A stretch of DNA of 31,537 bases from a virus. This document shows, one piece after another, positions 18,001 to 21,000 of this stretch (position 1 is the stretch's first letter; every line of letters starts with the position of its first letter). The position numbers were made by a program. The stretch is taken from positions 93,341 to 124,877 of IMG/VR virus record IMGVR_UViG_3300033688_000038, one strand, 5' to 3'.

Positions 18001-21000
18001 GTATCTAAAGGTGGATTTAAAACTCTAACTACTAAAACTACCATCATGGATAGAGTAGAAACATTAATATCTCACTATAAAGATGATCCATTGAAAGCAT
18101 TAGGTGCTACTGATAACAGATCACTTAAAGAAGCATTAGCTTGGTGGACTGTAGTAATTAGAAGATGGGCTTTGTTGTCGATTTGTACTAGAGAAGATTT
18201 AAAACGACTGTTTGAACAAGCAGTTCTTAATCTTCAGAAGAAAGTTAGTTAAAACACTTTATTAATATGAGGTTTGCTTTATGGATATGAATGCGTTAAA
18301 AGTTATTGCTGCTAAAGATGTTGTTGTTAAAACAATGACTAATAAACACTTTAGTGTTTGTGATATCAGAACTGCTCTGGAGTTGATCGGTAAGCCATGC
18401 GCTTGTCAAGATTCAATGCTAATCCTTTCTTCTGTCCATTGCGTAGATTACACAGCGATGAACCCTGTAATTCGTGAGCTTATCCCAGAGCTGGTTAAGA
18501 AGGTGTTTGGCTTCTCACACAGCATGCAGTCACACATACCAACTCAGATTGTGTTAAGCAATTAAGCAAAGTCTATAAGGTATTCAAATGAGTACCTTAT
18601 GTAAATTGTTTAATATGAGGTTAAAATGGATATTATTTTAAAGAAAGATGAAACTTTTCGAACATCAGTGTATGTTTATGGTGGCTTCTTTGGTGTTCAT
18701 ATGCAAACTGAAGTTAATAAAGGAGGCTATAAACAAGAAACAACAGTCCCTGCTGGCATTTTAAATGACCCAACAAAAAAAGGACAGCTTGGTGTTGTAA
18801 TGGATTCTAAATATTGTGACTTCTCACAAGAAGCTATTGATGTATTAAAAGCGGCTAAACGTGAAGTTGGTTCTTTCGCTTCTGTTGTGTGTGATAGTAA
18901 AGCCTTTGGCTGGTGTGGCGGTACTCGCTTCATCTGTGAAGTAAGTGACTTAACAATTGGACGTGATTGTGATCCTAGTCACTATTTGCCTGCTGATATT
19001 GAAGCTCCACAAGATTTCAAAGATTTCATTGATAATATGTTAAAGTAATTAAGCAAAGTCTATAAGGTATTCAAATGAGTACCTTATGTAAATTGTTTAA
19101 ATGAGGCAATAGCTTTATGAGTGTGTTTGAGATCATTAAAAGTTTTATGCTTATTATTAAGTTAAAGTATAAGATTAAGAAGTTAACAGAAATAATAGAA
19201 GAACTTACTGATTATTCTGATGAGTTAGATCAAGAGGGGCTACATACTATGGCAGAGTGTGTAGATGAAAAAGCATTAGCTGAACTCAATAATCTAGATA
19301 GTTTAAATAAACAACTAAAGGAAGTCCTTTTATGTTTAAGGAGTTAATACTGGCAACTACTGTGCTGCTTGCCTCAGGTGCTGTTCAGGCGCATGGTCAA
19401 ACACCTTATAGTTATGGTGGTGTTGACTCCTTCGGTCTAGTTAAACCTGAAGCTAAGGTCTTCCATGAAGTAGCGACGGTGCGAGTTAAAGTCATTAATG
19501 CTTATGACACTTCACAAATATACAAAATTACATCGGATGGACGCTTATATAAGACAATAAGCATAGGGGCTAACTCCTCTAAGTACATTCGAGTTCCCGT
19601 AGTGATGAATAAACCAAACACACCAGAGTTACACAAGGTTTGTTCAACATTAAAAGGTAGCACTGGTCAGTTTATGAGTTCTCGTTTTTGTACAAAAACT
19701 CGATTATATTGGATAAAATTGTGATTAATAAATTTTTATTCTATGTAATGATACTGATTAGTACTACGAATCTTGTACATGCTGATACTATAAGAGGTGA
19801 GAGTGGTGTATCCTGTTCTATGGATACAGATTCTTCTCCTTTAAAAGTAAAACTTGAAGTTCGTCGAGGTGATGAAACAAATAACTCTTACGGTTTCTAC
19901 AATGATAATTCACATGAGGCTTACGTATCAGTAGGTGTTGAGTATTCAATTGGGGCTCCAAAAGGCCTTGATTGTGATAAGCTTTATCAAAAAGAGTTAA
20001 CCATCCGTGATTTACAAGTAAAGCAGTTACAAGAACAACTAAAACAATTACAACATAAATCAGATATTATCTGGGAAGAATAAGGAAATAGTAATGAAAA
20101 AGAATTTATTAATGGCAACAATGGCTCTGTGTTTCTCTGCTACTGTTGTTGCAGACGGGCATGGCTCTAGTTCAAATGAGCTTATTTTCAAAGCTGAAGT
20201 AGAACGCCAGTGTGTTATGGTGATTGAGAAAGATAACAAAGAAGGTGATTTGCTTTTAAAAGATATTTCTGGCGAATATGAAATTGAAGCAGATAATGCC
20301 ACTTTTACAGTCATTAGCAATGACTCAGAACAAGTCCTTGTAAAATCATTAAACTTCAGCCATACCCTTGGGAGTGGATTGGATGATGATTTATTCAAAT
20401 TCGTATTTAATAACGACACTACAGTAACACCAACCGTAAGTAAGATGGAAGATGGTTACCCTGTAGTCCCAAATAAACCTCAACAAGTCCATATGCGCGT
20501 GGATATGAAGTCTATTGACTTAACACCAGGTGATTATAAAGCAACAGTCATTTTTGAAGTTGATTGTGAAGATTAATAATCTATTGTAATATATAAGGGG
20601 TGGCCTCGGTTATCCCCTTTTTTGATAAAAATAAAGAGAAAATAATGTCTACTATCATTAAAGATCCAATGGAACTTATCAGCAATACACCAGCTGAGGT
20701 GGTAATTAATCGAACTAAGTCTCGCTTCTATATGATGTTATCTAAGCATATTGAGAAGCAAGGTGTGGGTATTAAAGAGGTTGCTGAGAAATATAATCTC
20801 CCACATACAAAGTGTGATATTATTGAACTCCACTGGACACGTATTAGTCTAGAAAAGTGGATTGAAGTGTTGGTAGATGCTGGTCTTGATGTAGGACATA
20901 GCTGTGAAATTGACCCCGAGACAGGGCTCAATAGTGCTACTCTTGTTGTAAATCTACCAAAGTAATAGTGTTTCACTGTAAGACTTACTACTATGAGTTG

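Follow-up and report, generated by a model that had tools for sequence, protein, structure and literature searches.

A conserved three-gene cassette of marine phages and Vibrionaceae pairs a remote pilin relative with two small secreted proteins and may encode a compact fiber-assembly module

Three translationally coupled genes of a virus, here g1, g2 and g3, represent three protein families that are conserved and co-located across many independent phage and bacterial genomes, far beyond chance. The g3 gene encodes a remote homologue of chaperone-usher (CU) fimbrial subunits, the product of g1 has a predicted Ig-like fold, and that of g2 is a small secreted protein; neither an usher nor a two-domain chaperone is encoded nearby. 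We propose, at a probability of about 0.45, that the cassette is a compact fiber-assembly module, akin to the chaperone-usher pathway and simpler than it.

Gene organization of the cassette

The window analyzed is a stretch of 31,537 nucleotides (positions 93,341 to 124,877 of IMG/VR virus record IMGVR_UViG_3300033688_000038), and all coordinates refer to it. The ORFs of g1 (19332..19724, 130 aa), g2 (19721..20083, 120 aa) and g3 (20094..20576, 160 aa) all lie on the plus strand, at the site given in the preliminary description. Each is preceded by a GGA-type Shine-Dalgarno sequence, and each product carries a Sec-type signal peptide, called by eye from its n-, h- and c-regions and AXA site, and one conserved cysteine pair. 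The GTG start of g2 overlaps the stop codon of g1 (GTGA), and the g1 stop overlaps the g2 start in three phages. GTG 19721 was taken as the start of g2 because it fits the homologues both in length (120 aa) and in signal peptides; TTG 19688, chosen by the ORF finder, and the ATG of a public gene caller (87 aa) were rejected as mismatching them.

The unit is closed by an intrinsic-terminator-like hairpin (20597..20623, plus strand); its 8-bp stem contains four G-C pairs and spans, with a loop of four, 20597-20616, and six consecutive T come next. The terminator is genuine as a pattern: a pattern scan found five terminator-like sites versus 1.4 expected in shuffles. The stem was recovered in an RNA fold, the z-score of the whole 71-nt fold being only -1.24. 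Upstream, between a repeat hairpin (19061-19088) and g1, the ORF list contains a further plus-strand ORF of 76 aa (19117..19347), predicted to be helical and acidic and to have no signal peptide. Its 3' end overlaps the start of g1 by 16 nt, so the unit may begin with this ORF, and the transcription unit would then comprise four genes. This ORF has no Pfam family above threshold and no homologue beside the trio in other loci. The trio has Srd-like and regulator genes as neighbors in the early or host-takeover region, and no endolysin gene adjoins it. The preliminary description, made from the sequence by itself, had reported three linked genes, each with a signal peptide and a Cys pair, and a closing terminator, all of which are borne out here. 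The motifs it quoted (LKVKLEV, AYVSVGVEYSIG, F.A.V...C and PGDYKATVIFEV) are all present and fall on positions conserved across the respective families.

g3 is remotely homologous to chaperone-usher pilins

The g3 protein is predicted to have a pilin-type incomplete Ig fold. Its signal peptide ends in ATVVA, ahead of DGHG, and the mature protein contains Cys40 and Cys158. Profile-profile alignment, a PDB profile search and two fold searches support g3 as a remote homologue of chaperone-usher fimbrial subunits, in line with the earlier suggestion that this protein is pilin-like. Comparison by hhalign of 121 g3 members with 13 fimbrial subunits of E. coli K-12 gave a probability of 89% (E 2e-6, 123 columns) across the whole mature protein, versus 5% in the control comparison with chaperones. 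In the alignment with FimA, the N-terminal motif of g3 falls on the donor strand and the Cys, and its last strand (149-157) on strand F; the N-terminal motif is also aligned to the donor strand of FimG. The best PDB profile matches are Caf1 (E 0.011), CsuE and FimA. In the AF2 model (pLDDT 82.6) the fold is Ig-like, the last strand corresponds to strand F and the seventh strand is lacking. Pilins rank top in Foldseek, and in VIA the best matches are the FimH pilin domain (6.6), FimA (6.4), CsuE (6.2) and a Csu pilus (6.1), followed by CfaE/CfaB and PapA; among the top 34 rows from a search of 48,161 chains, most are pilins or other subunits of donor-strand fibers. The VIA Z values against pilins are middling (5.0-6.6, over 95-122 aligned residues), and it is the enrichment of pilins among the fold matches of the predicted structure, rather than these values, that carries the argument.

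Among sequence comparisons, the kinship is visible at the profile-profile level only. No Pfam family was found for g3 and five relatives at E up to 1-5, and none of Fimbrial, SCPU, Saf, Caf1-like and DUF4402 is among the few families that the 121 g3 members match at E up to 0.01. A single-protein word-index search with g3 returned only itself, the relatives being reached through alignments alone, and the viral structure library BFVD yielded one clear look-alike only. One UniRef cluster containing a g3 homologue of V. owensii is named DUF4402, a family that, like g3, consists of small secreted bacterial proteins. This membership was not reproduced: the DUF4402 HMM has no match to the g3 genes of the phage record and of three cassette-bearing genomes, where its best matches (E 0.36 or worse) are on other contigs.

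The donor-strand-like motif of g3 is L-x-F-x-small-x-V, followed by C-G. Positions -10, -8 and -4 before the Cys are hydrophobic in 93-95% of the family; position -6 is mostly A, G or T, with E in a fifth. The size of g3 (~140 aa mature), the alternating hydrophobic N-terminal strand directly before Cys-Gly and a G-x-Y/x...T-V pattern on the C-terminal strand are shared with pilins of the Fimbrial PF00419 type (FimA, FimG and PapA; also Caf1, CsuA/B and CfaB). There are also differences. The partner of the N-terminal Cys is at the end of strand B in chaperone-usher pilins, whereas in g3 it is a C-terminal residue, the C-terminal strand ending in Cys. Furthermore, the usual penultimate Tyr is replaced, and g3 has no usher or two-domain chaperone encoded nearby. 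Cys40 and Cys158 co-vary across the family. Several g3 paralogues are found per locus, and some forms have two domains, the additional one being N-terminal, as it is in tip adhesins. Classical tip adhesins lack a donor motif, whereas the two-domain g3 forms retain it. Residues 31-40 of the AF2 model are confidently placed (mean pLDDT 93), yet DSSP assigns no strand to 28-39; self-complementation of the monomer is thus possible.

g1 is a single-domain Ig-like protein

The ORF and its AF2 model describe g1 as a secreted protein with one Ig-like domain. The signal peptide is MFKELILATTVLLASGAVQA, followed by H, and the mature protein contains Cys104 and Cys120. The model (pLDDT 80.1) has six long strands and supports an Ig-like β-sandwich, whose fold matches include the N-terminal domains of PapD-type chaperones along their full length. 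Foldseek places an MSP domain first, then the chaperones DraB, Caf1M, CsuC and FaeE (E ~3e-3 to 1e-2), and the VIA Z values are 7.8 for Caf1M, 7.7 for SafB, YadV and FaeE, and 7.5 for PapD and DraB. However, chaperone N-domains (7.4-7.8) are tied in VIA with MG, Fn3-like and transglutaminase domains (7.5-8.6), complement MG domains reaching 8.6; by hhalign, the probability of a match between g1 and chaperones is only 9%, and g1 has no Pfam PapD_N match. Sub-threshold matches to FixG_C/Cep192 Ig domains were obtained with g1 of Vibrio. Of the Ig/chaperone-like character claimed in the preliminary description, the Ig-like sandwich thus stands, whereas the chaperone identity is tentative, given Z values tied with those of unrelated Ig domains and the low hhalign probability. 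We consider g1 a candidate chaperone-like partner of g3 and, at most, a tentative homologue of PapD-type chaperones.

In the family alignment, H21, C104 and C120 are invariant, the His being the mature N-terminus. Cys104 and Cys120 are located on the last two strands of the model (98-107 and 118-127) and would form a disulfide, and an N-terminal extension of ~25 residues precedes the first long strand. A disulfide between strands F1 and G1 and an N-terminal extension are listed as specific to FGL chaperones (PMC4133393, Table 2); g1 has both the Cys pair on its last two strands and the extension. The N-terminal domains of the FGL chaperones Caf1M, SafB and DraB superpose on g1 and share with it the extension before the first strand and, if the Cys pair is bonded, the last-two-strand disulfide. 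On its last strand g1 has a basic residue followed by L-Y-W, where chaperones have K-L-F/Y-Y (K-L-F-Y of FimC in the hhalign alignment, at 9% probability). Chaperones of the PapD type have a hydrophobic G1 donor strand and two conserved basic anchor residues, Arg8 and Lys112; no counterpart to Arg8 was identified in g1. In contrast to g1, with a single domain of ~110 aa, FGL chaperones have two domains (~220 aa). The g1 protein and all 15 of its relatives are 104-147 aa long and consist of a single domain, with no second, cleft-forming domain and hence no cleft between domains. The loop joining the last two strands averages 24 residues in FGL chaperones versus ~10 in g1, and g1, unlike them, carries the invariant N-terminal His. 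The mature N-terminus, always His, prompted us to consider a copper site of the histidine-brace type; this idea was dropped, as many relatives have Tyr in place of the second His (position 101) or lack it.

g2 is a small secreted protein outside named families

The signal peptide of g2 ends in NLVHA, ahead of DTIR, and the protein contains Cys32 and Cys85. Conserved elements in the column profile include D-x-I-R-T-S-x-G-x-x-C, G-A-P-K-R-L-D-C and a coiled coil of ~25 residues ending in Trp. From this pattern, g2 reads as an amphipathic β-hairpin whose base is held together by a disulfide of the invariant Cys pair, with a short coiled coil after it. One face of the hairpin is hydrophobic and the opposite face displays two conserved residues, a Glu and an Arg/Lys; the tip is variable, rich in N, D and Y, and ranges from almost nothing to more than 30 residues. 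The family comprises 91 clusters in the protein collection. It has no Pfam family, matches weakly phrog_37374 (function unknown) and has no relative in the PDB, where profile matches are at chance level (Cys-loop region of acetylcholine-binding protein, E 0.05; PHF19, E 0.02). The ESM Atlas model of g2 is unusable (pLDDT 0.44), and there is no ESM Atlas model of a Vibrio g2.

For the small outer-membrane barrel proposed earlier for g2, the amphipathic hairpin pattern is the one supporting observation, with no fold and no homologue beside it. The hairpin strands, 8-9 residues long, are short for a membrane span, and the helix is polar and coiled-coil-like. The usher (PF00577) is a β-barrel of ~800 aa with plug and periplasmic domains, unlike g2 with its ~100 mature residues. 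What g2 has in common with CsgG, secretins, Wza and the usher is the logic alone of a secreted third component always found beside a subunit and a helper; in sequence and fold it is related to none of them. Furthermore, a subfamily of g2 is present without g1 or g3 in marine podovirus-like contigs, between a lipoprotein of 212-247 aa and a Peptidase_M15_3 endolysin or a large terminase, and g2 is therefore not tied to pilins. A spanin identity was rejected, since the signal peptides look cleavable, unlike those of i-spanins, and there is no lipobox, unlike in o-spanins; in g2 and its relatives an AXA-type cleavage site, judged by eye, directly precedes the conserved mature N-terminus.

Distribution of the cassette and of ushers

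The same gene set is found in at least five further phage records or contigs, including those of Vibrio phages, in Ferrimonas and in 39 of the 301 Vibrionaceae species sampled (~13%), among them the Harveyi clade of aquaculture pathogens. Carriers include the cultured Vibrio phages D479 and 2.275.O as well as V. owensii and V. jasicida. According to the preliminary description, a trio not co-occurring elsewhere would speak against its reading; the presence of the trio in other phages, Ferrimonas and Vibrionaceae removes that objection. The g1 gene is present in almost every locus in which g3 lies beside g2, and the gene order is fixed. Chromosomal cassettes of Vibrionaceae contain two or more g3 paralogues and are outside any visible prophage. 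In databases, all cassette genes are named "hypothetical". Pfam, NCBIfam, PHROGs and PADLOC contain no informative family for g1, g2 or g3; besides the sub-threshold Ig matches of Vibrio g1, the only library matches are phrog_25455 and phrog_37374, both of unknown function. No g2 match was obtained outside the center genome in a class-wide sample of 400 Gammaproteobacteria genomes, and neither megablast of the region against phage and plasmid collections nor single-protein locus scans returned anything. No description of the cassette was found in the libraries searched, and nothing relevant in the literature on usher-independent donor-strand systems or phage-borne pilin cassettes.

No donor-strand pilus of Gram-negative bacteria is known to us that does without its own large usher and a chaperone of two domains. 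The absence of an usher, previously noted for the window, extends to the entire virus record of 124,877 bp, in which neither the usher HMM (PF00577) nor that of PapD_N (PF00345) has a match. No ORF of usher size (~800 aa) or of the size of a two-domain chaperone adjoins the cassette in the 21 loci read. Elsewhere in the genome, however, each of the five cassette-bearing Vibrio genomes tested encodes one usher of ~800 aa above the Pfam cut-off. Two of the usher operons were read out and are complete (pilin-chaperone-usher-adhesin), and in the five genomes checked the operon is unlinked to the cassette, being separated from it by 68 kb or more or placed on a different contig or replicon. In three of the five genomes the g3 profile matches the gene of the major pilin, 2-3 kb distant from that of the usher, and it also recognizes the operon pilins in both operons read out. 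V. ishigakensis and Ferrimonas, which carry the cassette and are represented by draft genomes, have no usher match above the cut-off.

A possible fiber-assembly module and competing explanations

Since the cassette recurs without the usual usher, it may represent an undescribed, stripped-down route to surface fibers. In the assembly that we infer, g3 would be the building block, a pilin-type Ig fold without its last strand, and the N-terminal donor strand of each copy would fill the groove of the next by donor-strand exchange. The periplasmic g1 would most likely stabilize g3 before its assembly by capping it, a task that in PapD/Caf1M-type chaperones belongs to the N-terminal domain, and g2 might oligomerize and replace the missing usher, either as a passage across the outer membrane or as an anchor. 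The phage would express the trio from its early host-takeover region and so alter the surface of the infected Vibrio-like cell, the likely result being a thin fiber or a capsule-like coat that masks receptors or clumps cells, to the presumed benefit of the phage. The weakest part of the model is the role of g2. Against it speak the shortness of the hairpin strands relative to a membrane span, the polar helix and the subfamily found without g1 and g3. The kinship of g1 with chaperones is tentative (hhalign 9%, no PapD_N match, Z tied with MG and other Ig domains), and g1 has one domain, whereas all chaperone-usher chaperones known to us have two and bind the subunit in the cleft between them. 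A bolder version is doubtful in our view: that the three proteins form an unrecognized pilus biogenesis pathway, in which a one-domain Ig chaperone and g2, a secreted protein of 100 residues oligomerized into an outer-membrane pore or platform, take the places of a chaperone with two domains and an usher of 800 residues, and which is mobile between Vibrionaceae chromosomes and marine phages that re-coat infected cells with it. The same features of g3 that complicate polymerization, namely, the donor motif kept by two-domain forms, which a classical tip adhesin would not have, and the confident placement of residues 31-40, leave some chance, though a limited one, that the trio is a non-polymerizing envelope complex. 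In such a complex the g3 monomer would be completed by its own N-terminal strand and locked by Cys40-Cys158, and g1 and g2 would be its partners, periplasmic or outer-membrane-associated, binding or shielding an envelope component with no fiber formed. The joint loss of both Cys in some g3 members, expected of a structural staple, and the middling fold Z (5 to 6.6) agree with this. However, the lack of a DSSP strand at residues 28-39 means that the groove is not visibly filled in the model, the homologues of g3 all polymerize through strand exchange, and paralogues together with an adhesin-like two-domain g3 per locus are typical of fibers.

The remaining explanations are less probable than either the fiber module or the envelope complex. 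One complete archaic chaperone-usher operon is carried by many Vibrionaceae. The ushers of the five Vibrio genomes tested and the recognition of their operon pilins by the g3 profile would be expected if the cassette supplied a subunit and a helper to a host usher, with g2 as an adaptor or regulator of g3-g1 delivery. Such borrowing is improbable: the usher operons are unlinked to the cassette, the drafts of V. ishigakensis and Ferrimonas have the cassette and no usher above the cut-off, ushers are normally specific to their own chaperone, which has two domains, and the strict presence of g2 would be left unexplained. The homology of g3 to pilins, the position of the cassette among host-takeover genes and the chaperone-usher operons of likely hosts are also compatible with an anti-pilus weapon: g3 would be a chain-terminating or groove-blocking decoy and g1 its carrier, together jamming a host pilus, for example, against superinfection by pilus-dependent phages. 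Jamming of host pili, which the preliminary description had suggested as an alternative, is weakened by the presence of the same cassette, with subunit paralogues and two-domain adhesin-like forms, in bacterial chromosomes; self-sabotage would be odd in 39 of 301 Vibrionaceae species with at least two g3 paralogues. It also gives g2 no role, and we know of no Vibrio phage that depends on a chaperone-usher pilus, so we regard it as very improbable. Least probable is that g2 is a lysis accessory acting on the outer membrane and that the trio acts as infection ends and not on the surface of a living cell. The solo g2 subfamily next to a lipoprotein and an endolysin or large terminase in podovirus-like contigs would suit this role, but the trio is found among early or host-takeover genes without an adjoining endolysin, bacterial chromosomes keep it outside visible prophages, and the signal peptides of g2 resemble those of neither type of spanin.

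Implications

The cassette is a conserved trio with a true pilin relative but neither an usher nor a two-domain chaperone, and it is carried by several unrelated marine phages. None of the families of g1, g2 and g3 has a name in Pfam, NCBIfam or PHROGs, so that a definition of the three would give an annotation to hundreds of "hypothetical" proteins. If the cassette is a fiber kit, the virus would be an unusual example of a lytic-type phage with its own fiber-assembly genes as an early set. Two possibilities follow for the biology of the carriers: the trio may employ the pilin fold for a new purpose within the envelope, or it may be a much simpler route to surface fibers, which could serve as a minimal display or secretion system and would bear on adhesion and biofilm formation of vibrios.

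Genomic context and recurrence of the cassette

The three genes lie on the + strand within a long series of small genes of the same orientation, in the final 31.5 kb of the 124,877-bp IMG/VR virus record. They are preceded by phage-family genes (a transcriptional regulator, phrog_13512, and phrog_21347) and followed by host-takeover genes, namely two Srd-like "decoy of sigma70" proteins and a tellurite-resistance-type moron. Since phage genes are found on both sides, the trio is located inside phage DNA and not in a host flank. The first gene, g1 (19332–19724), is followed by g2, for which a GTG start at 19721 is preferred because the resulting protein, at 120 aa and with a normal signal peptide, resembles the homologues. 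This start overlaps the g1 stop codon (GTGA), and the same four-base overlap is present in Vibrio phage D479 and IMG/VR contig L004. The pilin-like g3 occupies 20094–20576, and a terminator-like hairpin with a T-run (20597–20623) closes the unit. Judged by eye, an n-h-c signal region and an AXA site are present in all three proteins; the mature proteins contain exactly two cysteines apiece, predicted from sequence to form disulfides. The preliminary description of three linked secreted genes with Cys pairs and a closing terminator is thus accurate. A 76-aa ORF (19117–19347) overlaps the start of g1 and may be co-transcribed with it. Just upstream of the trio-bearing unit, two identical 28-nt hairpins with a 12-bp stem (18574–18601 and 19061–19088) bracket a single gene (18626–19048). 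Downstream (21045–23182) are genes for a 288-aa lipoprotein with a ClpP/SppA-like region and a 418-aa multi-pass coiled-coil membrane protein. Counterparts of both adjoin the trio in L004, but upstream (1271–3105; 43% identity, E 5e-46 and 38%, E 2e-68, respectively), so that this second envelope pair accompanies the cassette in two phages.

The trio is conserved as a cassette, and the co-occurrence expected of it was observed in other phages, metagenomic contigs and bacterial chromosomes. According to tblastn, g1 and g2 are adjacent in Vibrio phages D479 (258 kb) and 2.275.O (349 kb), followed in both by a gene for a 147–157-aa protein with the architecture of g3 and only ~25% identity to it. 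Alignment-based scans recovered a 172-kb IMG/VR contig with g1, g2 and three copies of g3, IMG/VR contigs of 36 kb and 24 kb (order g3-g1-g2), and three metagenome contigs, two of them with the same genes. In a Ferrimonas chromosome, g3-g1-g2 is found between ordinary housekeeping genes, and that of Vibrio ishigakensis carries g1 and g2 with five g3-like genes, one of which is extended by 150 aa at the N-terminus. The g1 of the latter locus, which is of the phage type, is broken into two ORFs (L010, 4545–4987), which either a frameshift or faulty sequencing of the draft genome would explain; g2 and the five g3-like genes are intact. Profile search detected g2 in 39 of the 301 Vibrionaceae species genomes, and a 400-genome sample across the class yielded no further g2 match; the bacterial range is therefore essentially Vibrionaceae-centred. 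All 12 fetched Vibrionaceae loci, from the Harveyi clade (V. owensii, V. jasicida, V. harveyi, V. hyugaensis and V. rotiferianus), have the order g1-g2-g3-g3', one of them decayed. The two g3 genes are often separated by a gene for a secreted protein of 136 aa (136–139 aa in L042 486–896, L043 492–902 and L047 443–862), which matches no family in NCBIfam or Pfam and has no equivalent in the phage cassettes of the window, D479, 2.275.O, L004 and L006. The g2 clusters in the Atlas are mostly viral. All database names read were "hypothetical protein", the exceptions being two DUF labels assigned automatically by UniRef and names of the 'conserved exported' or 'uncharacterised' kind.

The g3 protein is related to pilins

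No curated family matches g3 or its 120 relatives. Nevertheless, four independent lines agree on its kinship with pilins, bearing out the earlier assignment. When the 121-member g3 profile was searched against PDB sequences, Caf1 came first (E 0.011), a peptidase second and CsuE next, with type 1 FimA and FimF lower. Using hhalign, the family matched 13 E. coli K-12 fimbrial subunits with 89% probability (E 2e-6, 123 columns, from the N-terminal motif through the last strand), versus 5% for five chaperones as a control. Among 48,161 chains, those closest to the AF2 model (pLDDT 82.6) are mostly chaperone-usher pilins and other donor-strand fibre subunits: FimH pilin domain (Z 6.6), FimA (6.4), CsuE (6.2), Csu rod (6.1), and further CfaE/CfaB, LpfD, PapA, PapH, CupE, TasA and archaeal filaments. 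The Z values by themselves are middling, and the argument lies in the make-up of this list; Foldseek concurs with pilin-type matches. Finally, in separate Vibrio usher operons the profile detects the major pilin gene 2–3 kb from the usher (E 1e-9 to 5e-8 per genome). Homology of g3 to pilins is thus highly probable.

Family statistics reveal a strand of alternating hydrophobics, L-x-F-x-(A/G/T/E)-x-V, three residues ahead of an almost invariant Cys-Gly and only ~5–10 residues past the signal cleavage site, which aligns to the donor strand of FimA and FimG. Co-evolution links the first cysteine to one that ends the protein: of seven members seen by eye to lack this C-terminal Cys, six are also without the first. 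In six family members, 100–400 additional residues precede the g3 domain, a layout resembling that of two-domain tip adhesins.

A one-domain Ig-like protein and a new family

In the AF2 model of g1 (pLDDT 80.1), six long strands form a sandwich. Foldseek retrieved an MSP domain first, followed by the chaperone-usher chaperones DraB, Caf1M, CsuC, FaeE and CupB2, aligned over their N-terminal domain (E 3e-3 to 2e-2). VIA-align Z scores were 7.8 for Caf1M, 7.7 for SafB, YadV and FaeE, and 7.5 for DraB and PapD, but complement MG domains (8.6) and other Ig-like domains tie with the chaperones. In hhalign, the whole N-domain of five E. coli chaperones is in register with g1, its basic-L-Y-W falling on K-L-F-Y-R-P, but at 9% probability only. 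Hence, of the proposed Ig/chaperone-like nature, the Ig sandwich and the N-domain matches stand, whereas a specific tie to chaperones is less clear. To our knowledge, all chaperones build their binding cleft with a second domain; unlike PapD-like chaperones, g1 does not have this domain. It does share two features that PMC4133393 gives as specific to FGL chaperones: an invariant pair of cysteines, one on each of the two final strands, and an extension ahead of the first strand. Judging from the model, g1 is a one-domain Ig protein and possibly chaperone-like, and the chances that it partners g3 are about even. Mature phage-type g1 always begins with His (H-S/G-H/Q-x-P...F/Y-G-G; 19392–19406), and in the Vibrio chromosomal type His is the third residue (N-V/L/I-H). 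A histidine-brace copper site was considered and rejected, since a second His is not conserved.

Searches for a structure, a family or a PDB relative of g2 returned none, and g2 represents a new family. Common to its 91 clusters are the core D-x-I-R-T-S-x-G-x-x-C, a pair of strands, G-A-P-K-R-L-D-C-x-x-L-Y-x-L-E and a ~25-residue helix in which Leu recurs at heptad spacing. Column statistics place hydrophobic residues at 41, 43, 45, 47 and 69, 73, 75, 77, conserved Glu (44), Gly (46) and Arg/Lys (72) on the opposite face, and an N/D/Y-rich inter-strand loop ranging from almost nothing to >30 residues. This pattern is consistent with an amphipathic hairpin that is stapled by a disulfide and exposes its tip, and is silent on where the hairpin resides.

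Ushers and alternative readings

The usher, described as missing from the window, is missing from the entire record: neither PF00577 nor PF00345 has a match in its 124,877 bp. None of the 21 loci read has an usher-size ORF adjoining the cassette. That the cassette uses a host usher is one rival explanation, and five cassette-bearing Vibrio genomes do encode one usher each. In all five, 68 kb or more separate it from the cassette, or the two are on different contigs or replicons; in the two operons read out, the usher belongs to a complete operon of its own. These archaic-type operons (L053, 5781–10371; L054, 4789–9382) encode a pilin, a 231–241-aa chaperone, a 793–803-aa usher that barely exceeds the Pfam cut-off (27–40 bits) and a 271–282-aa tip-like protein. 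The draft genomes of V. ishigakensis and Ferrimonas gave no usher match above the cut-off.

Another rival assigns g2 a lysis-linked role. In podovirus-like marine contigs a g2 subfamily does occur with neither g1 nor g3, between a 212–247-aa lipoprotein and an M15 endolysin, acetyltransferase or large terminase; this small secreted protein may serve there in a lysis cassette or in the envelope. In these contigs (L014, L022–L026, L031 and L034; e.g. L023, 4234–5709), the lipoprotein always precedes g2 and has GQSIDGNV-type repeats, and Peptidase_M15_3, acetyltransferase or TerL follows. Further rivals are that the trio jams host pili or forms an envelope complex that does not polymerise. PADLOC reported no defence-system match, and literature searches returned no description of this cassette or of any usher-independent donor-strand system.

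The best-supported model, to which we assign a probability of roughly 0.45, is a reduced donor-strand fibre system, in which g3 would be the fibre subunit, g1 a capping helper and g2 an oligomeric outer-membrane or anchoring factor. Its weakest element, g2 as substitute for the usher, is by itself rather unlikely. What the phage would gain we purely infer: it may be receptor masking, exclusion or clumping.
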